Program-made: the position numbers and the translations under genes
Notes under the pieces: generated by a model
What the model saw: only the letters and a program-made list of their open reading frames with translations
Database searches by the model: none
What the model was told of the DNA's origin: nothing
In this document: positions 21,832 to 59,542 of the stretch, in pieces
How positions within the stretch are numbered: position 1 is the first letter of the stretch
Layout of the letters: every line of letters begins with the position of its first letter
Assembly (NCBI GenBank): GCA_018830645.1
Contig: JAHJSA010000023.1
Coordinates: forward strand, 7,482 to 71,481
Reading direction: 5' to 3'
Source of the DNA: Actinomycetota bacterium
GTDB lineage: Bacteria > Actinomycetota > Thermoleophilia > RBG-16-64-13
DNA length: 64,000 nt

Positions 21832-22707
21832 TCAGTAGGCGTAGAGCTTGCCGTAGGGACGGTGGGTGAACGGGGCTATCTTGCCGAAGGGCTGCGAAAG
21901 CACCTCGGTCTCGTCGAATCCGTGCACTCGACAGAAGTCGGTGACAAGCTCCTCGATGCGGGCCGTGTCCTCGGGAGACGGGTCGACCACACTCACCTCT
22001 TTGCCGAGTTGGTGCCCCTGCACCGACCCGCGAACGTAGATCACACCGCCGTGCATGCCCGTGCCCACGTACGACCCCAGGAGCGGCTCGCTCGAATCGC
22101 CCAACCCGAGCAGGATCATCTCCCCCCCGGCCATGTACTCGCCGAAGAAGTCGCGGGCGCGTCCGCCGATCACGATGACCGGGTGCTGCTCCCCGTAGGC
22201 CTTCATGTGGATGCCCACCCGGTAGCCCACATCGCCGCGCACGTAGACTCGACCGCCGCGCATGCCATACCCGACTACATCCCCCGCATCGCCGCGCACC
22301 ACTACCAGTCCACGGTTCATGGTGTTGGCGATGCCGTCTTGGGCGTTATCGTCCACGATGACCGTGGGACCGTCCATGAAGGCGGCCAGGTCGTTGCCGG
22401 GCACGCCGTTGACCAAGATGGTGAGGTGGTCGGCGCTGATGCCGGCGCCGATGTAGCGTTGGCCGTTGACGTTGTCGAGCGCCACAGTCGATACGCCCGC
22501 TCCCACCAGCTCCCGGATCTGCTCGTTCAAGGTCTTGTAGTAGACGCCCCGGGCGTCGATGTGAGCCGTATCGCCGTCACGTGTCACTAGCCCGCTCTCG
22601 AGGCCGGGCTGGCCGGCCGTGATACGGGCGGGCTCGATGCCCGTGGGCCCGCGCCGAGCGGGGCCGGTGGGGACTCTGCGCACTGATTCCGACGAAGGTG
22701 TCATCAC
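21832..22707 (-). CDS. Glutamate synthase GXGXG-domain subunit (archaeal-type GltB C-terminal domain homologue)
   Basis: Repeated G-x-G-x-G beta-helix motifs (YIGAGISADH, VVVRGDAGDVVGYGMRGG, VYVRGDVGYRVG); immediately downstream of the FMN subunit. Confidence 0.75.
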   Translation of the reverse strand: MMTPSSESVRRVPTGPARRGPTGIEPARITAGQPGLESGLVTRDGDTAHIDARGVYYKTLNEQIRELVGAGVSTVALDNVNGQRYIGAGISADHLTILVNGVPGNDLAAFMDGPTVIVDDNAQDGIANTMNRGLVVVRGDAGDVVGYGMRGGRVYVRGDVGYRVGIHMKAYGEQHPVIVIGGRARDFFGEYMAGGEMILLGLGDSSEPLLGSYVGTGMHGGVIYVRGSVQGHQLGKEVSVVDPSPEDTARIEELVTDFCRVHGFDETEVLSQPFGKIAPFTHRPYGKLYAY

Positions 22708-22717
22708 TCGGCTCTCC

Positions 22718-24244: not shown

Positions 24245-24253
24245 GGCAGACCT

Positions 24254-34158: not shown

Positions 34159-35639
34159 CAGTTTCCTCCTTGGTTCCGGGCCGGACGGCCCAGGTGTTTC
34201 GCGATGACCGCCTCAGCTTCCGGGGGCAACGGCGCTACAGAGTGCTTGGCGAGGATCCTTCGGGCAACGGCGAGCGCCCGAGCGTGGGCGTCCTCACCCC
34301 CGCGCTTCTCCCAGGCGCCCCGCATGCGACGGTCGATCACCTGAGCCTCCGACTGCTCGCGACGAGCCAGTTCCCGGGTATGCCTCTCGCGCAGGAAGTT
34401 GCCATCGGACCCTACTCTCAGAATGGATTCGAGACCGATGGAGGCGACATCGCTGCGGATGCCTTCGAGCACCCGCCGGTTCATGCGTGCGATCTCGTCA
34501 TCCATCACCATCTGACCGAAGTCGAAGGTCAGGCCTAATTCGAGCATCCCCATGCCATAGATCAGGTTGGCCCCTGCCAACGCTGGTAACAGACTGGTGA
34601 GGGTCTTCTCGTGGCCCGCCTGCACGTCGGGTAGTTTGCTGTCTGCCTAACCGCCGGCCACCCAGCAGGGCAGGTAGTAGAACTCACTCATCTCGGCGAC
34701 GGCGGCGGAGATGAGGGCGAGTTCGGGAGCTCCGACGGGCGCAGTGGCGTGGCGCAGGTCGAAGGTGGTGGTGCTGCTGCCGTAGATGACCGGAGCCCCG
34801 GGGCGGGTGAGTTGAGCGAGCGTAAGCGCCGAGAGCACCTCCGCGTTGTGGGTGACCATGGTGCCGGACAGGCTGATCGGACCGGTCGCCCCGGCCATGG
34901 CCATGGAGATGACGTTCGAGGCGATCCCGTGGCGCGCGCACCCCATCATGATCTCCGGGGTGGGCGAGTAGAGGGCCAGGGGACTCGTGGGGCAGGTGTC
35001 GATGGAGAATATGGGGCGCTCGCGCAAGGCTTCAGCCCCGCCGACCACCGCTGCCCCGATCTCGGCGAGTTCATCGATCTGCTCTCCGGTCTCGACGCCC
35101 GCGTGCACGTGCTTCGTGGTATTGCGGAGCGCCGCGACGAAGCCCTCCAGGTAGGCGCTCTCGGAGGGCACGTCGGTGGGCGTCACCGCCATCTCGAAGG
35201 TATCGCACATCTCGAGGGCGTCGCAGAGCCGAGCTATGCGGGCGAGATCGTCCAGGGTGGAGTCCCGGTGCTCCCCCGTCTCGAGATCGTAGACTTTGGT
35301 GCCCTCACCGAAGTTGGTGTAGCCCACCGAACGGCCGCCCATGAGGTAGTCGCGCTCGCCATCCCGCGAGGCCAGGAGGATCGTGCCCGGAGCCGACTCC
35401 AGTGCCTCTTCAACCACGTTCCGGGGGAAGCGGACAATCCGCGTGTGGGTGTCCACGACGCACCCTGCCCCGTCGAGGACATCGAGCGCCTCGTCCACCG
35501 GCACCTTCACACCGGCCGTCTCGAGAACGACCAGGGTGGCCTCATGGATCGCTTCCCGACCCGCGGCGCCCAACACATCGAAGCTGAGCCGCGGTACGCC
35601 CGCTCGCTCCTCATCCCTCAGCTTCTCTCTCCACCCCAT
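34158..35639 (-). CDS. mttB: Trimethylamine:corrinoid methyltransferase MttB, pyrrolysine-containing (in-frame UAG at 34647..34649)
   Basis: Track ORFs 34647..35687 and 34158..34625 share a frame across a single TAG: ...[51 protein letters not shown]; ~493 aa from ATG 35639 (RBS AAGGAAGG), Pyl at ~331 as in MttB. Confidence 0.9.
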
Positions 35640-35644
35640 ATGCC

Positions 35645-36169
35645 TCAGGCCTTCCTTTCCAGAGCGGGATCTTCGGGGACTTCCCACATATAGCTGAACT
35701 TCTCGTTCCCCAGGATGGTGAACACCTCGGTTGAGAGAATGCTCCCGCCCGGCGCGAGCGGGCCGCCGAGGAACTCAAGGAGCTCCTCGCTTCCTCGGAA
35801 CACGGCTTCCACCAGGAGGTTATAACGACCGGTGCAGTACCCCACCCAGCACACCCGGTTGAGTGCGGCGAAGGCGCGGGCGACCTCCCGCAGATCGCCT
35901 GCGACAACATTCACGCCGATCATGACGTTGATGGGATAGCCGGTGGCCGCAGGGTCCAGCAAACCCACGATCTGCATCACTCCGGTTTCGTGCAACCGTT
36001 CGATGCGTTTGCGCACCGTGGGCACGGACACGCCGGTGGCCCGCGCGATCTCCGCGTTCGGCAGGCGTCCGTCGCTCTGCAGGAGGGCGAGGATCTTGCG
36101 GTCCAGTGAATCAAGGTGCTCCGGACGCGGCTCGCTCCTCCGATGCTCGTCCACCAGACCCCCAGTCAA
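35645..36169 (-). CDS. Lrp/AsnC family transcriptional regulator
   Basis: N-terminal HTH (LDRKILALLQSDGRLPNAEIARATGVSVPTVRKRIERL) and C-terminal RAM ligand-binding domain; directly upstream of mttB. Confidence 0.8.
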   Translation of the reverse strand: MTGGLVDEHRRSEPRPEHLDSLDRKILALLQSDGRLPNAEIARATGVSVPTVRKRIERLHETGVMQIVGLLDPAATGYPINVMIGVNVVAGDLREVARAFAALNRVCWVGYCTGRYNLLVEAVFRGSEELLEFLGGPLAPGGSILSTEVFTILGNEKFSYMWEVPEDPALERKA

Positions 36170-44602: not shown

Positions 44603-46063
44603 CTACTCCTCCGCCGAGACGATGATCTTCTTCATCGCCTCGTGGACCGCGGGATCGAGCGGCATCGCCTCGTGGGTCTTCAGCAGATCGGCGGCCATAG
44701 CCTCGGCACGCGTCGCCACGTCGGTCCCACCTTTCTTCGTCCATGCTCCCCGCGTACGCCTGTCGAAGAGCTTCACCTTCGACTGCTCCGAGGGCATGTA
44801 CTTCAGCGTGTGCTTCTCCTTCAGGAAGTTCTTGCCCGAACCGATCTTGTGGATCACCTCGGTGCCGATGGTGTCGTTGTCCACGGGTGAACCGCGCACC
44901 ACGCGCTTGACCATCGAGGCGATCTCGTTGTCGATCAGGAGCTGTCCGTAGGAGAACGTGACACCCAGTTCGAGCATCCCCATACCGTATATCAGGTTGG
45001 ACCCTGCCAACGCTGGTAGCAGACTGGTGATGGTTTTCTCGTGCCCGGCCTGAGCGTCGATCACTTTGCTATCCGCCTAACCACCGGCAACGTAGCTCGG
45101 CAGATTGTAGTAGTTGGACAGTTCGGCCACCGCCGCGGAGATCATGCCCAGCTCTGGCGCCCCTACGGGGGCCGTGGCGTAGGTCATGTCGAACATGGTG
45201 GTGGAGCTTCCGTACATGGCGGGAGCGCCCTTGCTGGTGAGCTGCGCCAGCGTGAGGCCGGCCAGCACCTCTGCGTTGTGGGTGACCAGCGTGCCCGATA
45301 CCGACACCGGGCTCGATGCGCCCGACATGGCCATGCTGAGCACGTTGATGGGGCATCCCCAGCGCGCGCTCTCCATGATGACCTCGCAGGTCACCGTGTG
45401 GAGCATCAGGGGGCTGGTGGGGCACACCAGGGTGGAGACCAGCGGCCTCTCCCGGAGCTCCCTGTCGCCGCCCGCGATGAGCGCGGCCATCTCGAACATC
45501 TTGCGGGCGTTGGCACCCGAAGAGACGTCGATGTGATGCACGTGCTTACTCGTGTTCAGGAACGCGGCTTCGAGCATGTGCAGGTCGTATGAGGCGTCGG
45601 GCATGTCGCGAGCGACGACGGCCGTCGAGTACACGTCGACGTTCTCCATCGCGTCGCAGGCGAGCGCCGTCCTTCCCATGTCTTCCTTTGTGGTCTCGTT
45701 CACTTCGCCCGTCTCGGGATCGGTGACCATGATCCCGCAGCCGAAGTTGGTGTAGCCCACGTGCTTGCCGCCCATCCAGTAGTCGTACCTGGGATCGCGC
45801 GCCGCGAGCAGGATGCTGCTCGGGCACGACGCCAGGGCTTCCTCGACCACGTAGGCCGGGAACTTCACGATCTTGGTGGCACGATCGACGATGCAGCCGC
45901 CCTCTTCGAGAACGTCCACTGCTTCCTCGAGATGAACCTCGACCCCGGTCAGCCGGAGGACTTCCAGCGTGGCGTCGTGGATGGCGTCGAGCTGACTGCT
46001 CGAGTACATCCTGAGACCCCAGCCTTGGTATTCCTCCGTACTGGCTCTCGGTCCTCGGATCAT
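44603..46063 (-). CDS. mttB: Trimethylamine:corrinoid methyltransferase MttB (second copy), pyrrolysine-containing (in-frame UAG at 45077..45079)
   Basis: Track ORFs 45077..46165 and 44603..45064 are in frame across one TAG: ...[54 protein letters not shown]; paralogous to the 34158..35639 copy. Confidence 0.9.
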
Positions 46064-46106
46064 GTGCGCACCTCCTTTCTCTCGCTCGTAGTGACAGGCC
46101 GTCTCA

Positions 46107-46772
46107 CTAGGAGACGGCTTCCTTGGCCTTCGCCACCGTCTCGGTGGCGCTCTCGGCGTAGACATCCGCGCCGATCTTGTCGGCCCAGTGCTGGGTGGCG
46201 GCGGCGCCGCCCACCATCGTCTTCACATTCCCCCTGATGCCCGCCTCGGTGAGGGCCGCCTCCAACTTGGCCTGATTCACCATGGTGGTGGTCATGAGGG
46301 CCGAGCTACCCACCAGATCGGCGTTGGTCTCCTGCGCCATGCGGACGAATTCGCCGATGGCCACGTCGCGGCCAAGGTCATGCACCTCGAACCCGGACAC
46401 GCCGAGAAGCGTGCCCACGATCGTCTTTCCGATGTCGTGCACGTCACCTTCGATCGTGCCGATGACCACCGTGCCGAGCTTCTCGACCGCCGATGCTTCG
46501 GGCAGGGCCTCTTCCAGTATTGCAAGCGCGGCCGTCATGCAGTCCGCGGCGATGATCATCTCGGGAAGGCTCATCTCTTCCGCCTCGAACATCTCCCCGG
46601 CCCGGCGCATGCCCACCGTGAACCCTTCCTGCAGGAGCCGGACTGGATCTAGACCGCTCTCCAACGCATCCTTGGCCAGCTGTACCGCACCGTCCTCATC
46701 GATGTCGAGGACGAGCTCCTGCGCCTTCTGGATGGCTTCCTCCATGCTAAGTGTCGCCATGTACCGGTTCAC
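46107..46772 (-). CDS. mttC: Corrinoid (cobalamin-binding) protein, MttC-like
   Basis: B12-binding domain with DxHxxG (GDVHDIGK) and SxL / GG motifs; N-terminal corrinoid cap helix; immediately upstream of mttB. Confidence 0.85.
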   Translation of the reverse strand: MNRYMATLSMEEAIQKAQELVLDIDEDGAVQLAKDALESGLDPVRLLQEGFTVGMRRAGEMFEAEEMSLPEMIIAADCMTAALAILEEALPEASAVEKLGTVVIGTIEGDVHDIGKTIVGTLLGVSGFEVHDLGRDVAIGEFVRMAQETNADLVGSSALMTTTMVNQAKLEAALTEAGIRGNVKTMVGGAAATQHWADKIGADVYAESATETVAKAKEAVS

Positions 46773-47005: not shown

Positions 47006-47284
47006 TTAGACCAGGAGCCCAGTATCGCTCATGCGCTGACGGCCGAACTCGGTAAGGCTGTACTTGAGCAGTATCTTCTCCTTCCCGAAGCTCTTGCTCG
47101 GATCAATGGTCTCCTCGATGGCATCGATGAGCCCCCCCGAGTAGAGGTCCGCAAGGGTGACCCGGTTGTTGCCGTACCAGTACTCGCCCTCGAGACCGCC
47201 GTACTCGGCGTTCAGTAACTCAGCGAGTTCGTAGTCCCACTTGGCTCCCTCGGTCTGCAGGATCTGCAGCAGGCGCCCTTTCAT
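47006..47284 (-). CDS. Hypothetical small soluble protein (~92 aa)
   Basis: ORF from the internal ATG (MKGRLLQILQTEGAKWDYELAELL...); no recognisable motif; lies between the membrane protein gene and the small peptide. Confidence 0.4.
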   Translation of the reverse strand: MKGRLLQILQTEGAKWDYELAELLNAEYGGLEGEYWYGNNRVTLADLYSGGLIDAIEETIDPSKSFGKEKILLKYSLTEFGRQRMSDTGLLV

Positions 47285-47315
47285 GTGTAGCTTCGCCACG
47301 TATCCCCCTCTCAGC

Positions 47316-48395
47316 TTAGCTGCCCGCAGTGTCCGAGTTCTCCGATGAGCCCCCAAGATGCGAGACCGATCGGATGACCTCAAGAACATCGCGGCGCTCG
47401 GTGTACATGATCACTCCACCGGCGATGACGATCAGGCCGCCGATCAGGAAGTTCAGGTCAGGCATGGTCAAGGTGAAGATGCCCAGGAAGATTATGGCGA
47501 ACACCCCGTAGAAATCGGCGATCGCCTGCCCGCGACCCACACCGATGAGCGGGAACGACTTATACCACGATACGTAGCAGAAGCCGAATGTCAGCCCGGC
47601 CAACAGCAACCACACGAGGTTCGTGAAGTGAAGCGCATCGACGAGCATCGTGATCGCATCGCCGCCGGTGAGGATCGCCGTGACCGGCAAGATGAGAACT
47701 ACCCAATAGAGAACCTCGGCCGTGAAGCGGATCGTGAGCCCCACGTCTGGGTCTACTACATCGAGCGCCCGACCGGCGAACGCGCCTTCGATACCCCAGC
47801 CCGTCGCAGCCATGATCCCGCCCACGTAGCCGAGCCACGAGCCGGTGCCCGTACCGGTCATCTCAGCGAGGATCCCCGGTGCGTAGACGACCAGACCTCC
47901 GCCAACGATCACCAGGATGCCGAGTGCCGCCCGGGTGGTTATCTTCTCTGCATACCAGACCCGGGCCAAGCCGGCGCCCACAATCGGATAGAGCAGGGCG
48001 GCAACAGCCGCGAAGACACCGCCAACGTAGCCGATGGCAAGAAAGCTACCGAAGATCGCCATGGGACCGCCGAAGACCGCTCCTGCGAAGAACCACTTCG
48101 AGACCTTGCGCATCTGCCGAATAGTCCTACCGTATTCCCGCATCTTGCCCAACACCGCAACCCAGACGTACATCGCGAGCAGCACAGCGATGGCGTTGAG
48201 CGCGGTGATAACCGCTGCCGCCATCAGGAAGTCCCTGGTTGTATCGGCGATGGCGTTGAACGGCGCTTCGTACCAGATCGCGGTGCCGGGCACGTACCAG
48301 GCACCCCACAGCACAGCGCACCACAGCGCCCACACGAACCCCCACCGCACCGACCGCTCGGTGTGATCCCTTCGTGCCTTCGTCAGATCCGACAT
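47316..48395 (-). CDS. Integral membrane protein (~10 TM), putative permease, possibly a methylamine permease analogue
   Basis: 359 aa, highly hydrophobic with repeated Gly-rich TM segments; inserted between pylC and the mttC-mttB pair; family not assignable from sequence alone. Confidence 0.55.
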   Translation of the reverse strand: MSDLTKARRDHTERSVRWGFVWALWCAVLWGAWYVPGTAIWYEAPFNAIADTTRDFLMAAAVITALNAIAVLLAMYVWVAVLGKMREYGRTIRQMRKVSKWFFAGAVFGGPMAIFGSFLAIGYVGGVFAAVAALLYPIVGAGLARVWYAEKITTRAALGILVIVGGGLVVYAPGILAEMTGTGTGSWLGYVGGIMAATGWGIEGAFAGRALDVVDPDVGLTIRFTAEVLYWVVLILPVTAILTGGDAITMLVDALHFTNLVWLLLAGLTFGFCYVSWYKSFPLIGVGRGQAIADFYGVFAIIFLGIFTLTMPDLNFLIGGLIVIAGGVIMYTERRDVLEVIRSVSHLGGSSENSDTAGS

Positions 48396-48412
48396 CTATC
48401 GACCCCCTTTCG

Positions 48413-48434
48413 TGCGATGCCTAGCAGCATCGCA
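48413..48434 (-). terminator. Perfect 8-bp GC-rich hairpin (TGCGATGC-n6-GCATCGCA) ~18 nt upstream of the membrane-protein start and downstream of pylC
   Basis: Inverted repeat read directly; no U-tract, so a terminator or RNA-stability/attenuator role cannot be distinguished. Confidence 0.3.
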
Positions 48435-48716
48435 GCCTCTAGAAACCCACCGACTCCAGATCCTCAGTGCCGATCCCCCCTCTCTTCGAGCCTCGGTGTA
48501 CTTGTATGGACAGGTACGCGAGAATGTCCGCGCCCCGGACGACCGCCTCATGATACCTGGACGCACCAACAATACGCAACAGACTCGCACCCATCCTGAA
48601 AGCCGCAGTGACCCCTGTCTCGTGCCTAGACAGGCTTGAGACACCACGGCCGCGACCCCCTGAGCAATCCGCTCGTGTGGGTGGCGCACCGAGCGCGGCA
48701 ACAGCCCGGGGGTGGG

Positions 48717-49904
48717 TCAACGAGCACCTCCCCCTATCGACCCAGTCCGTACGCTCACCGGGTCAGGCGTCGCCGACAACCCGGAGTCGCGCGCGAGCCG
48801 GCGAACGGCCTCCTCCGCGCGGGCACGTGCGTCTACCGCGTCGACGCCTACGCAGATCATGGTGGCCGACCAGGTCTCTCGCCCCTCGGCACGGTCCGTG
48901 AGCACCTCGTCCGCGCCGAAGGCGTCTTCCAGGAGCCGCAGCGGCCCCGCCGTGCTCATCACGTGTTCCCCGAGAACCTCCAGGCTGCCCATGGAGGCGT
49001 GCACGTGTTGGTAGCAGACTCCACGACCGCCCGGGGGCAGTGAGCCGGGGAGACCGGCGCCACGTGCGATATCCGCGACCAACGCCACCACATTGAGTCC
49101 CGTGGAGTGCAGTACCGCGGTGGGCGTCTGGCTGGGTAGCCGCGCGTCGATCTCGATCAGCCGCGGAACGTCGCCGTCCAACATGACCTCGACGTCCATG
49201 AGACCCACGAGCCCCATGCGTTCGGCAAGACGCACCCCGGCAGCGGACATGGCCTCGAGAGACCCTCCGGCCGCGGTCACCGGAGCGACCACGCGCTTGC
49301 AGTCGTACACGTGGTCGAACTCGAGCAACGTGGGCACCAGAGGCAGCGCCCCATCCGGCGTCCCGATCACCTCCAACGACAGCGAAGGCCCGTCGACGTA
49401 CTGCTGCACGACGACTTCATGACCCGCGGTCTCGAGCCTCTCTCGAGCCGCTTCGAGGTCGCTCTCGGTCCAGACGACGCTCACCCCCTCGCTGCCGCTC
49501 GACCCGCTCGGCTTGACCACCGCGGGGAAGCCGCACTCGGGCCACGGTAGGGGCCGCGGAACATCCAGTTCGGCGAAGAGACGGTCGGAACGAAGCTTCG
49601 AGCAGGAGAGCTCGTAGGAAGGAAGGTGGAAGGCCAGAGGTACACCCCAGGACGGCACGACTTCGCTCAGCCACCGCAGGGTCTTCAGGTCTTCGCAGGC
49701 GGGCAGGATCACGTCGCACGCTCCGAGCACCACCCGCGCTCGTTTCACGTCGGCCGTGACGTCGAACACGTGGCTCTCTGTTGCCAATCCCGAGGCGGGC
49801 GTGGCGGGCGCCCTATCGACGAGGACAACCTCGAATCCAGCCTTGATGCCCAAATAGACCGCCTCGGTCCCTTGTAGACGTCCTCCCACGACGCCCAGGC
49901 GCAT
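48717..49904 (-). CDS. pylC: Pyrrolysine biosynthesis ATP-grasp ligase PylC (3-methylornithine--L-lysine ligase)
   Basis: Start VVGGRLQGTEAVYLGIKAGFEVVLVDR... and the IEIDARLPSQTPT motif match PylC; ATG overlaps the pylB TGA. Confidence 0.9.
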   Translation of the reverse strand: MRLGVVGGRLQGTEAVYLGIKAGFEVVLVDRAPATPASGLATESHVFDVTADVKRARVVLGACDVILPACEDLKTLRWLSEVVPSWGVPLAFHLPSYELSCSKLRSDRLFAELDVPRPLPWPECGFPAVVKPSGSSGSEGVSVVWTESDLEAARERLETAGHEVVVQQYVDGPSLSLEVIGTPDGALPLVPTLLEFDHVYDCKRVVAPVTAAGGSLEAMSAAGVRLAERMGLVGLMDVEVMLDGDVPRLIEIDARLPSQTPTAVLHSTGLNVVALVADIARGAGLPGSLPPGGRGVCYQHVHASMGSLEVLGEHVMSTAGPLRLLEDAFGADEVLTDRAEGRETWSATMICVGVDAVDARARAEEAVRRLARDSGLSATPDPVSVRTGSIGGGAR

Positions 49905-51001
49905 CACCACTGGGCCTGCGCCCTCAACCCCGGAGCCTGCGTCCCGGCGAGCCAGCCTTCGTACTCCGGCAAGGAGGCCACCTTCAACCCGAGGGGAGCG
50001 AGATGCCGCTCCACTCCGGCCACGGTACGGAAGCCCTCATCGATGTCGAGCGTTGACTGTGAGACTCCGGCCAGCCCGCTTGCGGGAGGGATGATGGATG
50101 TGACGACGTTGGCGCCCGCACGCAGGCGGGCCTCCAGACCCCGAAGGCCGTCGATGTCGAGAGAGGCTGGGATCAGGCGATCGGGCATGGTGAGCCGCAT
50201 GGTGGCTAAGGTGACCATCTCGGCCAGCAGGGTGGGCGTGTCGAGGCCGCCCATAGGAGTGCCCTTCTGGGGGACGAAGCCCATCACCCGCACCTGCTGC
50301 ACACCCTGCGCCCTCATGGTGACGAGGGAGCGCGCCCGGTCGGCGGCCGTCTCGCCCACACCCAGAAGGATGCCGTCTTCAGCGTGTAGTCCAGCGCCCA
50401 GGGCCCGGCTCCTCGCGCCGACACGCGCCGCGAAATCCTGCCCCGGCCGAAGCTTGCGGAACAACTGCGGTGAGTGGGTCTCCTGGTAGCAGGCATACCA
50501 GTCGGCCCCCGCCTCGGCGAGCTGCCGCAGCACGGCATCCGGCACCACGCCCGGAGACACCATCACCGGCACCCCTGCCGCTCCTCGGACGTCCGCCACG
50601 AGTTCCACCAGATGGTCGAACCGGCCGGCGTCGTGGATCTCCGGGTCCTCCCCCAGGGTCAGATCCACGAGGTGCACGCCCGAGCCGGCCAAGCCGCAGG
50701 CTATCTCGACCACCTCAGCCGCGGTCTTGCGGTACCGGGGACTCGCGTCGTTGCCCTTGCGGTAGAAGCAGAACGTACAGCGATTGCGGCAATACGTCGA
50801 GAAGTAGACGAAACCGTATAGAAAGATCTTGCGCCCGAAGTAGCGCTCCCTCAGTCTCTGCGCGGTGTCGAAGATGAGAGCGGCCTCATCCGGCTCCTGC
50901 ACTTCGAGCAGCGTCTCGATCTCGGGCACCCGGAGGCGTTCCCCCGCGAGCGCGCGCTCGACGATCGCTTCCACTTCCCGGCGTCGTGGCCGTCCGGTCA
51001 C
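49904..51001 (-). CDS. pylB: Pyrrolysine biosynthesis radical SAM enzyme PylB (3-methylornithine synthase)
   Basis: FVYFSTYCRNRCTFCFY radical SAM cluster motif; RLIPASLDIDGL...AGANVVTSIIPP matches PylB; GTG start at 51001 (residue 179 of the track ORF) preceded by a G-rich RBS. Confidence 0.9.
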   Translation of the reverse strand: MTGRPRRREVEAIVERALAGERLRVPEIETLLEVQEPDEAALIFDTAQRLRERYFGRKIFLYGFVYFSTYCRNRCTFCFYRKGNDASPRYRKTAAEVVEIACGLAGSGVHLVDLTLGEDPEIHDAGRFDHLVELVADVRGAAGVPVMVSPGVVPDAVLRQLAEAGADWYACYQETHSPQLFRKLRPGQDFAARVGARSRALGAGLHAEDGILLGVGETAADRARSLVTMRAQGVQQVRVMGFVPQKGTPMGGLDTPTLLAEMVTLATMRLTMPDRLIPASLDIDGLRGLEARLRAGANVVTSIIPPASGLAGVSQSTLDIDEGFRTVAGVERHLAPLGLKVASLPEYEGWLAGTQAPGLRAQAQW

Positions 51002-51012
51002 CTGCGAACCCC

Positions 51013-51900
51013 CTATTCCTCCGCGACCGGATGCGATCCCGGCCGGGTGCCTTGTACGTTGAGGCGCGCCCCGTCGAGGTACACGAGACTCCTCCCTACC
51101 GGGTGGATACGAGACCCACCCGTCTGCATCATGGCTAGACGCTCGAGGCCGAACCCCCACCCGGCCCACGGACCGTTGACGCCCCACTGCTCGTCGAGTG
51201 GGTGCGGTCCGACGACGCCTGAGGCCACCTCGATGCCGCGCACCTCCACATCGAACGTCGCGCCATATACGCCGGAATCGGTCTCGACGATCTTGTATTG
51301 CAGGCCCAGGGGCCTCATGGCGACATCGGCCAGCATCCGCAGGCGATCGGCGGGGTCGCCGCTCGGCTCGAACTCCACAAGGTTGAGCATGGTGAACTCC
51401 GAGAGGTGGTTCGAGCCCTTCGACTCCTTGCGGAAACAGGGTCCCACTTCGAAGATGCTCACGGGGGGCGGCCATAGCCGTTGGAGGTGACTGAGCAGGT
51501 AGTAGAGGTTCGGTGCCAGCATCGGGCGCAGGCATCGGTCGGTGTCGACCCAGTACACCTGGCGCCAGAGCGGGTGTACTTCACCGATCCCCATCTTCGC
51601 CAGGGCGCCCTTGCTCATCATGAGCGGCGTGGCCACCTCGACGAAACCATCCGCCACCAGCGCCGCGACCAAGACCGACTCCACCGTGCGCAGCACCGGG
51701 CGTCGCCTCTCGGTGCGCAGAGAGTCGAGCCGATCGACGTTCGCCTGGCTGAGTTCCCGATGGTTCCCCTCGTAGCGGGCGTCGCGCTCCTCAGCCGAGT
51801 CGAACGTGTCGGCCAGCGCGGCATCGTCAAGCCCGATCTCGGCTAAGCGCTGCCTCTGCTGCGGCGAGAATCCGAGTGCGATGTCTCCCTGGCCTATCAC
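51013..51900 (-). CDS. pylS: Pyrrolysyl-tRNA synthetase, C-terminal catalytic subunit (PylSc)
   Basis: Class II aaRS motifs conserved with PylS: CLRPMLAPNLY, FEVGPCFRKES, EFTMLNL, GPHPLDEQWG, GFGLERL; GTG start overlaps the pylSn TGA (GTGA). Confidence 0.9.
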   Translation of the reverse strand: MIGQGDIALGFSPQQRQRLAEIGLDDAALADTFDSAEERDARYEGNHRELSQANVDRLDSLRTERRRPVLRTVESVLVAALVADGFVEVATPLMMSKGALAKMGIGEVHPLWRQVYWVDTDRCLRPMLAPNLYYLLSHLQRLWPPPVSIFEVGPCFRKESKGSNHLSEFTMLNLVEFEPSGDPADRLRMLADVAMRPLGLQYKIVETDSGVYGATFDVEVRGIEVASGVVGPHPLDEQWGVNGPWAGWGFGLERLAMMQTGGSRIHPVGRSLVYLDGARLNVQGTRPGSHPVAEE

Positions 51901-52262
51901 ACGAACGAGGTGCTCTCGAACTTCTCGAGCTTCCAGGATGGTATACGGCACCGCGGACACGGCTCGTCGTAGATCTTGTTGCGCAGATGACGGGCGACCC
52001 GACTGTTCCGGGAGTTCCGCATGCGGATGTCATGCCCGCAGTGCGTCTGCAACTCCACGAACCCGCCCCTGAGCTTCACCGAACGGACGCCATGCAACAG
52101 GCCGGTCTTCGACGGCCACAGCTTCACCTTCTCGATCACCCCGTAGGGGGCGGCATGCCGCCGCACCGTGCGCTTCTTCGCGCCGGGGATAGGAGCCAAG
52201 ACCCAGTCGGGCAGCTTCCCGCCTGTCCCAACGTCTCCGTTCGTGGAGCCGACCACGTCCAC
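51897..52262 (-). CDS. pylSn: Pyrrolysyl-tRNA synthetase N-terminal tRNA-binding domain protein (PylSn)
   Basis: 121 aa; LQTHCGHDIRMRNSRNSRVARHLRNKIYDEPCPRCRI closely parallels the Zn-binding region of the Methanosarcina PylS N-terminal domain; GTG start 45 nt downstream of pylT. Confidence 0.85.
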   Translation of the reverse strand: MDVVGSTNGDVGTGGKLPDWVLAPIPGAKKRTVRRHAAPYGVIEKVKLWPSKTGLLHGVRSVKLRGGFVELQTHCGHDIRMRNSRNSRVARHLRNKIYDEPCPRCRIPSWKLEKFESTSFV

Positions 52263-52307
52263 CTACCGCCCGCCCTTCCTCTCACCACTCTCTTCTGCAT
52301 GATGGTG

Positions 52308-52379
52308 TGGAGGAGAGTCCGGGAGTCCAACCCGGCTACGAAGATTTAGAGTCTCCGCGGTCATGCCGACCAACCCTCC
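52308..52379 (-). tRNA. pylT: tRNA-Pyl (CUA anticodon) gene pylT
   Basis: Minus-strand 72-nt sequence GGAGGGTTGGTCGGCATGACCGCGGAGACTCTAAATCTTCGTAGCCGGGTTGGACTCCCGGACTCTCCTCCA folds with a 7-bp acceptor stem, single U8, a 4-bp D stem with 5-nt D loop, a 6-bp anticodon stem, loop CU-CUA-AA, a 3-nt variable loop and a 5-bp T stem. These are the hallmark atypical features of tRNA-Pyl. Confidence 0.85.
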
Positions 52380-52457
52380 TTGTTGCCGGCCGCCGGGCGG
52401 CCGGCTCGGGGTGCACCGCCCGTCTGTGGGGCGGTGCACCACTACTCGTAGGCGGTC

Positions 52458-53486
52458 TTAGACCGCCGCCTCTTCCGCGGCCTCCACCATGGCCCTCAGG
52501 TTCTCGGTCTCCGCCGAAGGCGGCACCGAGCAGCCGGGAGCGATCATGTCGTAGCCATCGGCCAGAGCCTTACGCACGTCGTTCTTCACGTCCTCGGGCG
52601 TGCCGGAGAAGAGCGTCACCACCGCGTCCACACCGCCGATCAGGGCGATGTGCCGGGGGAACCCGCGCAGCACCTCTTTGGCGGCGACGGCATCCACCGA
52701 CGGCTCCACGCTGATCGCGGTCACACCGGTCTCGGCGACCTCCGCCATGATCGGGTTGAGCTTCCCGCAGATGTGCATGATCGTGAGAACGCCGGGGAGG
52801 TTGGCGATCTGCTTCGCCTCATACGGCTGAGCGAGGTTGCGGAAGATGGGCGGGCTGATCACGTCGATCGAGGCCATCATGTCTTCGATGACGATGATGT
52901 CCGCACCCGCGTCCACAAGGGCTTTGCCCAGCATGGTGCCGGCCTGCTCGGCCACTTCCATGAGGGGCACCAGGCTCTCCGGCTTCTTGAAACTCGCCTT
53001 GAGTGCGTCGGTGATGCCGATCAGATTGGCCACGATCGAGAAGGGGCCGACGATGTTGCCCATCACCGCGACATCGTCGCCAACGGCTTCCTTCATCAGC
53101 CGCACGGCCTCGATCAATTCAGGCACGCGTCCGCGGGTGAGGAAGTCGTCGGGAAGAGCGATCTCGTCCCCGGCGTGGAAGGCGTGCACGTCGATACGCG
53201 GGATACCCTCGCGCCCGGCGTACTTGACGGTGCAGCCCAGAGCCTCGCTCTCGACGGTCTGGCAGTACGGGGCACGCACAGCGTCGAAGCCGAGTACGGA
53301 GTGGGCCGCCAGAGCCAGTTTGGCCATCGACTCGGCCTTCTGGTGGGCCTCCGGCCATTCCGCTCCACACGCGTCCATCTGCGCATAGGTCGCCGTCTGG
53401 TTGGCCGAGAAGACCGGTGGACGGTCCACGGGCAAACCGGCAAGCGCTGCTAGTACACGTTCCTTCGAAGTCATCACACCTCTCAC
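52458..53486 (-). CDS. Uroporphyrinogen decarboxylase (URO-D) family methylcorrinoid methyltransferase (MtbA/MtaA/MtqA-like)
   Basis: 342 aa URO-D fold typical of the methylcobamide:CoM / methylcorrinoid:tetrahydrofolate methyltransferases that partner with corrinoid proteins; lies between pylT and mtbB. Confidence 0.8.
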   Translation of the reverse strand: MRGVMTSKERVLAALAGLPVDRPPVFSANQTATYAQMDACGAEWPEAHQKAESMAKLALAAHSVLGFDAVRAPYCQTVESEALGCTVKYAGREGIPRIDVHAFHAGDEIALPDDFLTRGRVPELIEAVRLMKEAVGDDVAVMGNIVGPFSIVANLIGITDALKASFKKPESLVPLMEVAEQAGTMLGKALVDAGADIIVIEDMMASIDVISPPIFRNLAQPYEAKQIANLPGVLTIMHICGKLNPIMAEVAETGVTAISVEPSVDAVAAKEVLRGFPRHIALIGGVDAVVTLFSGTPEDVKNDVRKALADGYDMIAPGCSVPPSAETENLRAMVEAAEEAAV

Positions 53487-54887
53487 CTATCCCATCTTCG
53501 CTTTCAGTCTGTCCACACTGTTGATACTGATACCGAGCAATTCTGCGATACGGATCTTAGCCTCTATCCCCTTGGCGCATCCGGGCACTGAGGTGATCAC
53601 ACCTATGTCGAGGTCTTCGCGCATCTCCCGCATCACCGTGACCTCGGAGAGGTCGGCGACGCTGATCTTCAGCTTGTCGGCCACGTAGGCTTTGGCTTCC
53701 GGTAGGCGCATCCTGCGCGCGAGCTGCATCCGAGCGACCAGGTCTCCGGCCGTACGGATGCCGCCCATACCAGCGGCCACCCCGTGGGCGATGGGCATCC
53801 CGTAGGGATCGCCCACACCCACCTATAATCCGTCGACGCGGGCGATCTCGACCATCGCGACCGAGGCCCGCGAGACACTGTCGATAGGCGGGGTCTCGAA
53901 CACCGGGGAGCCACCCACCCCCATGCCCATGTTCACGTGCACCGGGATGTTGGCCACCGCGGTGACCGCCTTGACGAAGGTGACGGCGCGGGCAAGGTTC
54001 CAGGCCATCGACTTGCTGGTGTTGGTGTTCACGACAGGTCCGAAGATGTCGCCTCCGGCCTTCTCGACGAGACCAACTTGGTGGTGCGGGTAGAGCCCGG
54101 CGAGACGCGTGCCGTCGTACTCGAGCTCGCCGTGGATACCGAGTACGAACTCCCCGGCCATGCCAACCTGGATCGCAAGATTCGGGTGTTTGGCCTTCAG
54201 CTGCTCGACTGCCTGAAGCGAGGCTTTGAAGTCCGCGTCGCCCGCCGCGCCCGTCGTATCGAAGTTCACGCCGTCGGCGCCCACCTCGGCCAGCTTGCCG
54301 CAGATGTAGACGATGTCGCGGGTCGCGTGCTCGACCGCCAGTTCCTGGGCCTCACGCGCCTCCTTGATCTTGCCCATCGGCAGGAGGTCGGAGGGGTTGC
54401 CGAACGGGCCGTCGGGCGCGTAGTAGGTGCCGAGGTTCGGCATGGCTCCGTAGAAGATGGGCACGATGGTGCTGAGCAGGATGTTCTCGAGCGCCTGCTG
54501 CTCCTGGGCGATGATCGGCTTGACCGGCTTCCAGGAGTAGTCCACATGCCCGAGTTCCATGGTATCGGCCGCGAAGGCCCGCTCGTGCACCTGCACGCCC
54601 TGCAACCGGCTCAGCGGGATACCGACCCCGCTGTTGCCTTGGTCGCCGTCGAGGCGCAACGTGCCGATGTCGTGCGTGAGTACGACCTCGTTCCCCGAGT
54701 CGACGCCCACTACGCGCGCATTGCTCTTGAAGAGGTCGAGCAGGAAGTCGATCTCGTCGTCTTTGAGGGGTGGGATGCGGCCGCGATCGGCTGCGTCTGC
54801 GGAGCCGGCGATCAGATCGGCCTTCAGCTCGTCAGCCGTCATATCGATCACGTGCCCGTCCCCCATCCGGGTCGGGTACTTCGTCAT
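53487..54887 (-). CDS. mtbB: Dimethylamine:corrinoid methyltransferase MtbB (second copy), pyrrolysine-containing (in-frame UAG at 53823..53825)
   Basis: Track ORFs 53823..54887 and 53487..53822 abut in frame across TAG: ...[33 protein letters not shown]; N-terminus [24 protein letters not shown] is MtbB-like. Confidence 0.9.
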
Positions 54888-54942: not shown

Positions 54943-55590
54943 CTACCCCTGCACCAACTCGAGGGCCTTCTGCACGGCCTCCTGGGCGTTCTCGGCGTAG
55001 GCGTCGGCGCCGATCTTGTCGGCCCAATACTGAGTGACGACCGCCCCGCCCACCATGGTCTTCACCTGGTCGCGGATGCCCGCCTCCTTCAGCATCTTCT
55101 CCAAGGCCTTCTGCCCGACCATCGTCGTGGTCATGAGGGCCGAGGTACCCACGATCGCGGCCCCCGTCTCCTTGACCTTCTCGACGAACGTGTCCAGGGG
55201 GACGTCGCGGCCGAGGTCCACCACATCGAAGCCGTACACCCGCATCAGGGTCGCCACGATGCCTTTGCCGATGTCGTGCACGTCGCCCTCGATCGTGCCG
55301 ATGACGGCCGTGCCGGCCTTCTTCTCTCTCTGATCCTCGGGAAGCGACGCCTCTAGAATAGCGACGGCCGCAACCATGGCCTCAGAAGCAAGGATCACCT
55401 CCGGCAGGAACATGGTGCCCCGTTCGAAGAGGTCGCCCACGTCGCGCATGCCCGGAGTGAATCCCTCGTTGATCACCTTGAGGGGGTCGAGGCCCAGCTT
55501 CACCGCCTCAGTCGCAATCGCCTTCGCCTCGTCCTCATCGGCCGACACCACAGCCTTGGCTGCGGCTTCGAGCAATTCTTGTTCTGTCAT
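54943..55590 (-). CDS. mtbC: Corrinoid (cobalamin-binding) protein, MtbC-like
   Basis: B12-binding domain with GDVHDIGK (DxHxxG) and the corrinoid cap; upstream of mtbB. Confidence 0.85.
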   Translation of the reverse strand: MTEQELLEAAAKAVVSADEDEAKAIATEAVKLGLDPLKVINEGFTPGMRDVGDLFERGTMFLPEVILASEAMVAAVAILEASLPEDQREKKAGTAVIGTIEGDVHDIGKGIVATLMRVYGFDVVDLGRDVPLDTFVEKVKETGAAIVGTSALMTTTMVGQKALEKMLKEAGIRDQVKTMVGGAVVTQYWADKIGADAYAENAQEAVQKALELVQG

Positions 55591-55759: not shown

Positions 55760-57370
55760 TTAGAGCCAGAAGATGGCGTAGGCGGTGAATACCACCGCCA
55801 CACCTGCAGCCAGAGTCACATAGGGCAACACTCCGGCCTTGCGGGGACCGAGTTCAGTCTCGCCCGCGGGCAACAGGTCCGCCCACATGTGGTCGGGGAA
55901 CTTGCCCTTGTCGGTGATGTAGTGCCTCACGGCGAACACTGGGATGACGAGAGCGGCAGATACGAAGCCCGTGGCCAGTGTCCCGGGACCCCACACGTTG
56001 GCCCCCGCGCCCAGAAGGAACGCGTTCACGAACGCCAGTACTACACCTGCGCCCAAGAGGAAGTTGGGGGCGCGCCACGGCCGAGGTACGTGCTTGTTGT
56101 CGATGCGGTGGATCCACCCGGCGTTCAGGTTGAGGAAGTTGAAGATCAAGTAGTTCACGTTCGACACGGCAAGCACGAACAAGTAGTCCGACATCAGCAG
56201 GAGGATCAGGTTGAACGTGAGGTCGGTCCACATGGCGCGGGTGGGCGCCCCGTGAGGGTTCACGTGATCCAGGTACTTGGGCAGCCATCCGTCGACGCCA
56301 CCCTGGTAGAGGGTGCGCGAAGAACCGGCCATCGAGGTCATCACGGCCAGCAGGAGGGTGAACACGAGCATGACCACCAGGACGTTGGTGACGACAGCGC
56401 CGCCGCCGACCATACCGGCCAGGGCTTCGCCGACGCCCGCTCCGCTGGCGATACCCGGTTCGAGCATGCCCTCTGTTCCCAAGACGCCCTGGAAGGCCAC
56501 CGGCACCACGACGTACACGGCGATGCACAGGAGGCCGGAGTAGAGGATGGCGCGAGGGGTATCGCGGCCCGGGTTCTTGAACTCACTTGTGTAGCAGATG
56601 GCGGTCTCGAACGCGTAGGCCGACCAGGCCGCGATGAACAGACCGCCCATGAAGAGCGTCCACCCACCCAGATCCCACGAACCCGCGATGACGTTGCCGG
56701 CATCATCCAAGGCGAGCGGGGTGAACGGCGAGAAGTTGCTGAGTGAGACATCGCCGGTGAGCAACGGCACGACGCTCACGACGAGCAGCGGCATGAGCGC
56801 ACCCACGGCAAGTACTGTCTGGATCCGGGCGGTGCGCAGGATGCCGTGGTGCTGCATGGCGAACACCGCGAGGAGCATGGCTGCACCGATGAAGAAGGTG
56901 GCGTTCACACGGATCGACAGGTCATCCTTGAGGAAGTCGAGCGGTATCAGCGTCACCTGCCACGTGTTGATCGCGGCGTCAGGCGCAAAGAAGATCGAAA
57001 GAAGGTAGCCCGCGCCGAGACCGCAGCCGATGGCCAGCACCGGGGTCCAGGCGAGCCAGTTGCACCAGAGCGAGACCGGCGCCAAGAGCTTGCTGTAGCG
57101 CACCCAGGCCGTGGCGCCATACACAGAAGCCCCTCCCGACTTGCTGGGGAAGAGGCCGGCGATCTCGGCGTAGGTGAACGCTTGGATGAAGCCGAACAGA
57201 ACGGAGATGGTCCACACGAGCCAGGCCGGCGCCCCCACGGTCGCCGAGATGCCCCCCATGGAGAAGAGCACCAGCGCGGGCACGCCGATCGCGACCCAGA
57301 AGGCCCCCTTCCAGTCGATATCGCGCTTCAGAACACCGGCCTCGTGCGACACGTACGTTTCCGATGACAT
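55760..57370 (-). CDS. APC-superfamily permease (amino acid/polyamine/organocation), candidate methylamine transporter
   Basis: 536 aa, ~12 TM, APC-type Gly-rich helices; located between the mtbC and mtmB genes. Confidence 0.75.
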   Translation of the reverse strand: MSSETYVSHEAGVLKRDIDWKGAFWVAIGVPALVLFSMGGISATVGAPAWLVWTISVLFGFIQAFTYAEIAGLFPSKSGGASVYGATAWVRYSKLLAPVSLWCNWLAWTPVLAIGCGLGAGYLLSIFFAPDAAINTWQVTLIPLDFLKDDLSIRVNATFFIGAAMLLAVFAMQHHGILRTARIQTVLAVGALMPLLVVSVVPLLTGDVSLSNFSPFTPLALDDAGNVIAGSWDLGGWTLFMGGLFIAAWSAYAFETAICYTSEFKNPGRDTPRAILYSGLLCIAVYVVVPVAFQGVLGTEGMLEPGIASGAGVGEALAGMVGGGAVVTNVLVVMLVFTLLLAVMTSMAGSSRTLYQGGVDGWLPKYLDHVNPHGAPTRAMWTDLTFNLILLLMSDYLFVLAVSNVNYLIFNFLNLNAGWIHRIDNKHVPRPWRAPNFLLGAGVVLAFVNAFLLGAGANVWGPGTLATGFVSAALVIPVFAVRHYITDKGKFPDHMWADLLPAGETELGPRKAGVLPYVTLAAGVAVVFTAYAIFWL

Positions 57371-57453: not shown

Positions 57454-58878
57454 CTACCAGTGCTTGTAGTTGACGCCGAGATCCTGCATCGCTTTCACGG
57501 CTTCGTCGTACACGGCCAAATACTCGGCGGTGGGAACGACCTTGATCGGGTCGTAGCACTCGTCGAACGGCTGACCCGCCGGCGCCGTCTTGTAGTCTTT
57601 CTCGTAGCTGCCCACCAGAGCGTCGAGGATACGGTTGGCCTCTTCGAGCGGCATCCCGGCCACCGCGTGGGCGACCTCGCCCATGAAGCGGGCCTCGAGC
57701 CCCGTGGTCTTGTTCGTGGCCACGCCTTTGGCCGAGGCAACTCCGGAGAGTATCTCGCGACCGCTGACGGTGTCGGTGATGGACTGAGCCGCAGTCTCGA
57801 GCAGGCACATCTTCGTGCCGGGCCCCGCGACTGTGTAGTACTGGTTGCCCAACATCAGGTTCGTGTGCTCCTCGATGGCCCGTGCGCAGTGCCCGGCTAC
57901 CGCCAGCGGCTCCCTGGCCGTGGTGATGCCCCACCGCACGTGGATGGGCCCGTCGAGATGCCACGTCGCCTGCGTCATCACGAACGCGTTCAACGTGGTG
58001 GCCACGTCGACGATGGTGGTCTCTTCGAGTCCACCCGCGTACCCTCCGAAGATGGGCATCTGCTCGCACATGATGATGTTCCCGGCTAGTACGTAATGAG
58101 CGGTGAAGGTCAACGCACCTACGTCGATCTTCAGCTCATTGAGCTGGGACACTTCATGGCTGTCAGACTGCCGCATCCCCCCGGGGAAGTCGGCTGCGAT
58201 GACTCCACCGGGAGACAGGGACGTCTCATTGCCCTATAACCCCATCCCGGGCCTGCCGGCCCTTGCCTGAGCCAGGCGGACCTGGTAGGCCTCTTGCCTC
58301 ACGGCAGCAATCTCCCACGGGCTGTTCGGTGTGGGGTCGTAGCCGTTGATCGTCTGCATCACCCCGTCCACGATGGTGTCTACGATGCTTTCCTTCGCGT
58401 AGGATTCGTGGATCGGCAGGAAGAGCGGCTCGGAGCATGGAGCCCCGGTAGGCCCTCCTTGGATCACCGGCGGCCTGGTGTCCTTGTGACTGCGAGGGCT
58501 CAGGAGCCGCGAATCACGCCCCTCCCCCAGCACGCAGGACTTGGGCGCCGCTGCAATACTGGCCCACACCTCTTCTTCCGTGTACTTGATCACGCGCCCG
58601 GTATCCATGCAGTAGATACCGCACTCCACCAGCATCTCCATGCCGGCTTTGAAGAGGTTGGCTACCAGTGCGGGGTCCGTGGGGACCATGACCTTCTTGT
58701 CCATCTGGATGCCGTGCTTCTCTTTCAAACGCGAGGCCGTCTTGGGGATGATCTCGTAGTCCCACGCGTTCTCATCCACACGCTGGCCGGTCTTCGCACG
58801 GTTGAAGGCTTCGAAGACGGTGACCTTCTGCGCTAGCGCCACGTTGGCTTCCCCCCTTTCTCTCGATCGGATGTGCAT
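57454..58878 (-). CDS. mtmB: Monomethylamine:corrinoid methyltransferase MtmB, pyrrolysine-containing (in-frame UAG at 58234..58236)
   Basis: Track ORFs 58234..58878 and 57454..58176 are in frame across TAG: ...ARAGRPGMGL-TAG-GNETSLSPGGVIAADFPGGMRQSDSHEVSQLNELKID, colinear with the MtmB Pyl-202 region (AGRPGMGV-O-GPETSLS...TDSHEVSQLNELKID); ~474 aa. Confidence 0.9.
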
Positions 58879-58891: not shown

Positions 58892-59542
58892 TCATCCGCT
58901 GACCAGTTCGATGGCCACCTTCACTGCGTCCGCGGCATTGTCGGCGTAGCCGTCGGCGCCTATCTTGTCCACCCACTCTTGGGAGACGGGGGCACCGCCG
59001 AACAGGCACTTGACGTTGTCGCGGATGCCGATCTCGATGAGGCCGTTCACGATCTCGCGCTGGGCGGGCATCGTGGTGGTCATCAAGGCCGAGCCCGTGA
59101 CGATATCGACGTTCTCCGCCTTGGCCTTCGCCACGACGTCGTCTACGGGGACATCGCGGCCCATGTCGATGACTTCGAAGCCGTTGGCGGCGAACATCGT
59201 CTTCACGATGTTCTTCCCGACGTCATGGATATCGCCCTGCACCGTGTGGCAGATCACCTTGCCTCGGCTCATGGCGCCCCGCTCGTCGGCGGTCATCCCC
59301 TCCGTCAGAATTTCCACAGCCCCTTGAAAGGCTTCCGCCGCGATAATGATCTGCGGAACGAACATCTCGCCCTCATCGAACAGGTCGCTGATGATGTTCA
59401 TGCCCTTCGAGAGTCCCTCCTGGATAGCATCCACAACCGTGATCCCGGCCGCCTTCGCCTCGTGCGCCGCCTCTGCGGCCACCTCGGGCTCGAGTTCCGA
59501 TACCCCCGAGGCCAGTTTCGCTAGGATCTCTTCTCGATTCAC
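58892..59542 (-). CDS. mtmC: Corrinoid (cobalamin-binding) protein, MtmC-like
   Basis: B12-binding domain with GDIHDVGK; first gene of the mtmCB-type unit. Confidence 0.85.
   Translation of the reverse strand: MNREEILAKLASGVSELEPEVAAEAAHEAKAAGITVVDAIQEGLSKGMNIISDLFDEGEMFVPQIIIAAEAFQGAVEILTEGMTADERGAMSRGKVICHTVQGDIHDVGKNIVKTMFAANGFEVIDMGRDVPVDDVVAKAKAENVDIVTGSALMTTTMPAQREIVNGLIEIGIRDNVKCLFGGAPVSQEWVDKIGADGYADNAADAVKVAIELVSG

Follow-up and report, generated by a model that had tools for sequence, protein, structure and literature searches.

Pyrrolysine (Pyl) is the 22nd amino acid, and pylD, the fifth and last gene of the canonical Pyl cassette, codes for the enzyme that oxidises and cyclises the product of PylC into Pyl. 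A stretch of 64,000 nucleotides (nt) from an Actinomycetota bacterium (assembly GCA_018830645.1, contig JAHJSA010000023.1, positions 7,482 to 71,481), here called the window, carries a group of pyl genes from which pylD is missing. The locus raises the question of whether this is a genuine Pyl cassette of an actinobacterium and whether it could work without its last gene. We are close to certain of the first point. Taken as a whole, the locus is best explained, with a probability of about 0.6, as a working Pyl locus that is maintained by selection and whose last biosynthetic step is supplied from elsewhere. The system to which it belongs is a known one, as are Pyl gene sets in Actinobacteria, and the identification was correct; what sets it apart is the in-place loss of pylD with all else conserved and a tRNA-Pyl that carries U73 throughout its clade.

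In a preliminary description made from the sequence alone, a tRNA-Pyl gene, pylSn, pylSc, pylB and pylC had been read as one minus-strand operon. ARAGORN and the NCBIfam equivalog models, by whose curated cut-offs the protein identities were judged, both agree with this reading. The features of the cassette, in their order on the minus strand, are as follows.

52308..52379, minus strand: pylT, called by ARAGORN as tRNA-Pyl with anticodon CUA; 72 nt with an encoded CCA
51897..52262, minus strand: pylSn, the separate tRNA-binding N-terminal subunit of pyrrolysyl-tRNA synthetase (PylRS); 119-121 amino acids (aa); TIGR03912 101.5 bits (cut-off 51.15)
51013..51900, minus strand: pylSc, the PylRS catalytic subunit; 295 aa; TIGR02367 283.9 bits (cut-off 178.15)
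49904..51001, minus strand: pylB, a radical-SAM methylornithine synthase; 365 aa; TIGR03910 440.1 bits (cut-off 348.2)
48717..49910, minus strand: pylC, an ATP-grasp 3-methylornithine--L-lysine ligase; TIGR03909 311.7 bits (cut-off 248.3)

All four cut-offs were exceeded, and the gene caller of the source contig gave identical PylSc (295 aa) and PylB (365 aa) products. The length of PylC is 395-397 aa depending on the choice of start codon (GTG 49910, GTG 49907 or ATG 49904). Sequence matches to proteins of known structure were equally clear: an alignment of PylSn with its Methanosarcina mazei counterpart (5UD5; E = 7.7e-11) showed the H, C, C and C positions to be conserved, PylSc matched Desulfitobacterium hafniense PylSc from end to end (3DSQ/2ZNI; E about 1e-75), and PylB and PylC matched 3T7V (E = 3e-84) and 4FFL (E = 9e-43), respectively. 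The radical-SAM motif CRNRCTFC and the string IEIDARLPSQTPT, both quoted in the preliminary description, are present in the translations. The overlapping junctions that it named are correct: the GTG start of pylSc overlaps the pylSn TGA as GTGA (51900..51897) and pylB and pylC meet as GTGATG (49907..49902), whereas pylSc stops with TAG at 51015..51013 and the GTG of pylB follows at 51001, 11 nt further on, with no overlap.

The chromosomal background of the cassette was examined through its housekeeping genes. The claimed polA-rpsA-coaE-uvrB synteny was borne out and includes leuS (leuS 7079..9610, uvrB 10290..12317, coaE 13094..13903, rpsA 13928..15520 and polA 15634..18384), while the guanine-cytosine (GC) content of the window was measured at 64.9% instead of the ~67% first given. 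UvrB placed the contig in the Actinomycetota, beside Thermoleophilia metagenome-assembled genomes (MAGs). Specifically, it was 100% identical to a protein that NCBI lists as 'MAG: ... [Actinobacteria bacterium]', 83-87% identical to UvrB of several Thermoleophilia MAGs, and 95% identical to a protein on what appears to be the contig of the closest relative, L001 (listed below). Since this last protein apparently lies on the pyl-bearing contig, uvrB and the cassette would share one contig in L001 too. To judge from these comparisons, the host is an Actinomycetota bacterium close to Thermoleophilia, with a chromosomal cassette that at least two relatives carry in linkage with housekeeping genes.

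Relatives of the locus were collected by a PylSc scan of species-representative genomes, to which the protein-database members L012, L013, L019, L020, L021 and L055 were added. They include the following.

L001: 'Actinomycetes bacterium' LH_M24; PylSc 88% identical
L002: Thermoleophilia
L003: uncultured Actinomycetota
L004: Thermoleophilia, isolate FR_37
L005: Gaiellales
L006: Actinomycetota, isolate Soudan_30
L013: GCA_054640715.1, a Thermoleophilia MAG
L007: a Bacillota MAG, used as outgroup; 49% identical

The order mtbA, pylT, pylSn, pylSc, pylB, pylC was found in all six Actinomycetota MAGs L001-L006, and this type of cassette is widespread in the group. In L004 and L006 pylC is followed immediately by pylD (TIGR03911 222 and 208 bits; cut-off 150), as it is in L012, L013, L019, L020, L021 and L055, and wherever further sequence was available pylD was usually followed by an SSF symporter gene, a corrinoid gene and mttB. 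The PylD proteins of Thermoleophilia MAGs are already named as such by NCBI. In two of the relatives the matches are split across reading frames, namely those to pylSn and pylB in L003 (9698..11927) and that to pylSn in L004 (9665..9945); these splits are either long-read indel errors or pseudogenes.

The five-part cassette of the window had been listed as if it were complete, and the absence of pylD and the trace that it left had been overlooked, as had the discriminator U73 and the high frequency with which TAG serves as a plain stop codon. A TIGR03911/PF21455 gene was sought by tblastn, with a PylD profile hidden Markov model (HMM) run on six-frame translations and among the Pfam labels of the gene caller, and neither the window nor the next 10 kb on its 3' side yielded one. 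With tblastn and the HMM, no pylD was detected in L001, L003 or L010 either. The only PylD-HMM match in the window was to the generic Rossmann motif of a 3-hydroxyacyl-CoA dehydrogenase (1092..2072). A profile search of a database of 5.8 billion proteins returned 127 PylD proteins, none of them labelled 'Actinobacteria bacterium' and, as far as this indirect check goes, none assignable to the contig of the window or of L001. The PylD matches from metagenomes were at most 49% identical, and none came from the samples of the window.

Where the relatives have pylD and the SSF symporter gene, the window has a 321-nt gap after the pylC stop and two genes that are unique to its contig.

48609..48677, minus strand: pylD 3' remnant of about 23 codons, reading HERIAQGVAAVVSQACLGTRQGS, inside the gap 48396..48716
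47316..48395, minus strand: EamA-family membrane protein (PF00892)
47006..47299, minus strand: small open reading frame (ORF) orf97, 97 aa; no family match

The frame of the gap that follows the pylC stop can be set against the PylD C-terminus, which reads HEPLALGVAAMVAQSCIGIWTDQGA. When this stretch was compared with PylD C-termini (P0003 aa 255-279), none of 5000 shuffles reached its score with any of the five queries, and its tblastn E value was about 0.007 window-wide. At the DNA level 48677..48623 was 71-73% identical to the pylD 3' ends of L019, L021 and L013 (blastn, E = 5e-4 to 6e-3). The PylD HMM applied to the remnant alone gave 3.8 bits (E = 8.8), which is not significant; we accepted the remnant only on the strength of the shuffle test, the match between DNA sequences and the place where it lies. 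On this evidence pylD was deleted in place, with about 23 codons of its 3' end left behind. By tblastn neither EamA nor orf97 was matched in the related loci, and the window showed no trace of the SSF gene. In L001, pylC runs directly into the SSF start without any relic, so that the end-points of the deletion differ from those in the window, and in L003 there is no pylD within 7.7 kb downstream of pylC. Overall, pylD is missing from the cluster in 3 of about 12 clade cassettes.

What argues for a working system is the state of the genes that depend on Pyl. The cassette lies within an island that includes five methylamine methyltransferase genes, each with a single in-frame UAG.

53487..54887, minus strand: mtbB-2, dimethylamine methyltransferase; UAG 53823..53825; PYLIS_2 92 bits; PF09505 on both halves
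57454..58878, minus strand: mtmB, monomethylamine methyltransferase; UAG 58234..58236; PYLIS_1 72.7 bits; PF05369 on both halves
44603..46165, minus strand: mttB-2, trimethylamine methyltransferase; UAG 45077..45079; PYLIS_3 77.8 bits; PF06253
34158..35687, minus strand: mttB-1; UAG 34647..34649; PYLIS_3 85.4 bits
32752..34158, minus strand: mtbB-1; UAG 33097..33099; PYLIS_2 91.4 bits

The last two form a second client pair (32752..35687, minus strand), and the start of mttB-2 was put near 46063 by the gene caller. In all five genes the UAG stands exactly at the start of the Rfam PYLIS model; the PYLIS scores, which largely reflect coding conservation and are not taken as evidence of an RNA structure, were used solely to locate this codon. 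The GC content at third codon positions (GC3) is high on either side of every client-gene TAG, and Pfam family matches span both halves of each gene. Corrinoid proteins are encoded close by (46107..46772, 54943..55590 and 58892..59542), together with a permease (55760..57370) that scores as a trimethylamine N-oxide permease.

The ratio of nonsynonymous to synonymous substitution rates (dN/dS) was estimated by the Nei-Gojobori method between the window and L001, which are separated by a dS of 0.23-0.73. Values of 0.08, 0.18, 0.13 and 0.17 were obtained for pylSn, pylSc, pylB and pylC, and of 0.07 and 0.04 for the segments of mtbB (mtbB-2) and mtmB that follow the UAG. The remaining pyl genes and the methyltransferase segments downstream of the UAG are thus under purifying selection, and selection beyond the UAG implies that the codon is read through. 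We infer from this that Pyl is actually made, and consider it probable that the system is functional at present.

The pathway that we propose would run as follows. PylB would convert lysine into 3-methyl-D-ornithine, which PylC would ligate to a second lysine. The deletion of pylD in place means that the last step must come from elsewhere, most likely from a copy of pylD that lies in a different region of the genome. The split synthetase, PylSn plus PylSc, would then charge tRNA-Pyl(CUA), and the charged tRNA would read the single in-frame UAG in mtmB, the two mtbB and the two mttB genes. The enzymes so completed would pass methyl groups from mono-, di- and trimethylamine to the neighbouring corrinoid proteins and the MtbA-like enzyme. 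A working system with PylD activity encoded elsewhere is the simplest reading of the locus, and we would give even odds to the specific proposal that a gene in another part of the genome supplies PylD.

Several observations weigh against this reading. No pylD was found for the organism in a search that covered 74 kb of the 218,470-nt metagenome contig ENA ERZ27247117 k141_60652 directly and the rest indirectly. Wherever upstream sequence was present, in 27 metagenome PylD loci from several lineages and in the clade itself, pylD adjoins pylC; no stand-alone pylD was seen in these metagenome loci or in the clade loci examined, which weakens the idea of a relocated copy. Lastly, dN/dS is an average across all of the divergence from L001 and would hide a function lost recently.

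This last point leaves room for decay, in which pylD was lost recently, no Pyl is made and the other genes have so far escaped disabling mutations. A remnant that is still recognisable at 71-73% DNA identity to the relatives fits a fairly recent event, the differing end-points in the window and L001 may reflect losses that were independent as well as recent, and L003, which also lacks pylD, has frame breaks in pylSn and pylB. Those breaks may be long-read assembly errors, however, and in the window the tRNA, the four pyl ORFs and the five client genes with conserved post-UAG sequence are all intact. Change too recent for dN/dS to resolve would be needed to reconcile decay with ratios of 0.04-0.18, and two relatives at a dS of 0.4-0.7 from each other both keep everything except pylD. 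We therefore regard decay as unlikely. An error of assembly, whether sequence was collapsed or a chimera formed where pylC meets the EamA gene, is highly improbable. The ENA, JGI and NCBI contigs (218-224 kb) are probably one data set and do not count as independent confirmations of one another, but the independently assembled L001 is also without pylD, composition and GC3 are continuous across the junction, and a true deletion, but not a mis-join, would leave part of a diverged pylD 3' end immediately behind pylC.

A further explanation dispenses with PylD altogether: Pyl might be completed by an unrelated dehydrogenase, or Pyl or a late intermediate might be imported, possibly via the EamA transporter. 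Such a route would account for the lack of any detectable PylD homologue for the organism of the window or for LH_M24 and for the absence of pylD from the cluster in those 3 cassettes, and a contig-unique transporter gene does stand in place of pylD and SSF. Its two forms fare differently, as uptake of finished Pyl would leave pylB and pylC dispensable, yet both are conserved; their purifying selection fits an alternative last step better. For that step the neighbourhood offers no candidate replacement enzyme, its only PylD-HMM match being the generic Rossmann motif at 1092..2072, and we found no such route described in the literature consulted. Incomplete MAGs explain the missing homologues more simply, and we consider completion without PylD quite unlikely. 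A Pyl system whose last step is encoded elsewhere thus remains our preferred explanation of the locus.

Such a system would have to operate in a genome in which UAG is also a very common stop codon. Among 49 curated genes of the window, 21 end in TAG, 22 in TGA and 6 in TAA. Among the TAG-ended genes are four of the five client genes as well as rpsA, polA, glnA, carB and pylSc, and a back-up in-frame stop within 15 codons is present for only 5 of the 21. The TAG stop of pylSc is shared with L001 alone, the other relatives having TGA. Five of the 21 TAG-ended genes run in frame into the next gene, a number compatible with chance except for the conserved mtbB-mtbA case described below. Genome-wide reassignment of UAG to Pyl has been described in some archaea; it was rejected here, TAG being neither avoided nor absent as a terminator (21/49). 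Because TAG is so common an ordinary stop, decoding must compete with termination, and Pyl insertion would be expected to compete with release factor 1. This competition is presumably limited by regulated expression of the cassette in its timing and strength. Prat et al. reportedly described such conditional Pyl decoding in 2012 for Acetohalobium arabaticum, where TAG is said to be a normal stop yet UAG is read as Pyl in methylamine methyltransferases. This organism serves as our working model for a TAG-rich genome that tolerates tRNA-Pyl.

The tRNA-Pyl gene itself folds as a compact cloverleaf with a 1-nt linker at position 8, a 5-nt D-loop, no T-Psi-C, an anticodon stem of 6-7 bp and a variable loop of 2-3 nt, and it is the sole tRNA called by ARAGORN in the 64-kb window. 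Across 13 aligned tRNA-Pyl genes from this and other lineages, 11 of 23 pairs showed compensatory changes. After the acceptor stem (GGAGGGU/ACUCUCC) come U and the encoded CCA, which makes the discriminator U73. The major identity elements reported for tRNA-Pyl are G73 and G1-C72 (PMC9976931). The tRNA of the window has G1-C72, as do 13 of 13 in the alignment, and lacks G73. U73 occurs together with A3-U70 in all eight clade tRNAs (window, L001-L004, L006, L013 and L019), whereas G73, with G3-C70 or G3-U70, was found in each of the 12 tRNA-Pyl genes taken from other bacterial Pyl loci. In the outgroup L007 ARAGORN found no tRNA, and the mtbA-pylSn spacer is without one.

U73 had previously been noted in three bacteria only, none of which is described as an actinobacterium: a Phycisphaeraceae bacterium, 'Guaymas Basin Sediment 11' and H. 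silvermanii, the bearers of 'pylTU', and it was remarked that U73 pairs were without any biochemistry (Guo et al. 2022, PMC9630628). The tRNA of the window shares the U73 discriminator with pylTU; here, U73 is fixed across an actinobacterial clade (8/8) and is accompanied by A3-U70. The occurrence of U73 instead of G73 throughout the clade implies a PylRS that is co-adapted to it. In PylSc, clade members have HLSEF and PLWRQVYW where the aligned G73 lineages, D. hafniense included, have HLNEF and PLFSQVFW. A shortened motif-2 loop, by comparison with the archaeal A73 pair, was considered as an explanation for U73 and rejected, since the loop is as long as in G73 lineages.

Upstream of pylT lie two further features that are of interest for the expression of the cassette.

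52385..52440, minus strand: two hairpins with stems of 12 bp and 9 bp, between the mtbA stop and pylT
52458..53486, minus strand: mtbA/mtaA-like methylcobamide methyltransferase of the URO-D family; TIGR01463 287 bits (cut-off 235)

The hairpin region had a folding energy of -48.1 kcal/mol (z = -4.8), and none of 200 shuffles was equally stable. The hairpins are GC-rich and without a U tract; both are common to L001, and the second is also present in L013. They probably separate the pyl genes from mtbA, as a terminator, an attenuator or a signal for processing, and may insulate or attenuate transcription into pylT. TetR and Lrp/AsnC regulators are encoded nearby and are, with the hairpins, the sole hints of regulation. 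A promoter and terminator scan found nothing, such a scan being uninformative for a high-GC actinobacterium.

The mtbA-like gene keeps its place at the head of every related cassette, as the synteny in L001-L004, L006, L007 and L013 shows. Its product is of the methanogen MT2 type and scored 321 bits with the MtaA model and 247 with the MtbA model, both under the equivalog cut-offs. The TAG stop of mtbB-2 (53489..53487) abuts the GTG start of mtbA (53486) in the same frame, and L001 has this TAG-GTG junction too. Decoding of the terminal UAG of mtbB-2 as Pyl would yield a fusion of MtbB with MtbA.

Comparison with described systems shows where the locus fits. The order pylSn-pylSc-pylB-pylC-pylD is one of the two standard bacterial orders (Borrel et al. 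2014, PMC3941956), and the placement of pylSn before pylSc, first taken to be odd, is therefore standard. The window shares with these pylSnScBCD clusters the gene order and the split PylSn/PylSc beside methyltransferase and corrinoid genes, and differs from them in lacking pylD, of which only the 3' remnant is left, and in having U73 instead of G73. In D. hafniense (pylTScBCDSn) pylSn lies at the opposite end of the cluster, and its PylSc has the G73-type motifs HLNEF/PLFSQVFW in place of the HLSEF/PLWRQVYW of the window clade; its PylSc aligns over the full length with the same motif-2 loop length, and its tRNA has the same compact cloverleaf and G1-C72. Close counterparts are the Thermoleophilia cassettes (L013, L004, L019, L021 and L055), which have the same mtbA, pylT(U73), pylSn, pylSc, pylB, pylC series, protein identities of 59-88% and the same housekeeping group (UvrB 83-87%). 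Theirs keep a pylD that overlaps the end of pylC and is followed by SSF, while the window has the remnant, EamA and the small ORF.

The phylum was likewise thought to be unusual for a Pyl cassette, an impression that does not survive comparison: two Actinobacteria were among the 81 bacterial PylRS genomes of the 2022 census (Guo et al. 2022, PMC9630628), and we found more than 10 related Actinomycetota cassettes. A separate bacterial lineage of 70-73% GC (loci L023-L028, L032, L034-L037, L039 and L045-L047) has pylB-pylC-pylD followed by tRNA-Pyl(G73) and then pylSn, and the PylD cluster P0225 is named Acidobacteriota at NCBI. More bacterial phyla seem to have Pyl cassettes than the four that the 2022 census lists.

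Some further genes of the region were noted. A gene at 31215..32708 (minus strand) codes for a member of the MttB superfamily without an in-frame TAG (TIGR02369 349.6 bits, below the cut-off of 525), and L016 has a second such gene at 10890..12377; both are probably non-Pyl methyltransferases for other quaternary amines. Just outside the window there is another split mttB, the third, which has an internal stop (L016 12553..14016). At 21832..26844 (minus strand), next to glnA, there is an unusual redox set in which glutamate synthase is split into separate domain genes: a formylmethanofuran dehydrogenase subunit C-related domain, a flavin mononucleotide (FMN) domain and an amidotransferase domain. 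After these comes a fused HdrB/HdrC-like protein (25492..26844).

In itself the cassette adds little, as Pyl systems are well understood and the proteins of this contig are already public. That the lineage both decodes Pyl without any PylD and uses a naturally orthogonal, U73-specific PylRS/tRNA-Pyl pair is a speculative and improbable combination, but each part has a bearing of its own. The U73 tRNA-Pyl and the split PylSn/PylSc are a candidate pair that may be orthogonal to the G73 pairs of genetic code expansion. A high-GC bacterium with ~40% TAG stops and an amber suppressor is relevant to how ambiguity of UAG is tolerated. Lastly, the loss of pylD amid conserved pyl genes and five Pyl-dependent genes offers a test case for whether PylD is always required and whether its gene is always linked to pylC.

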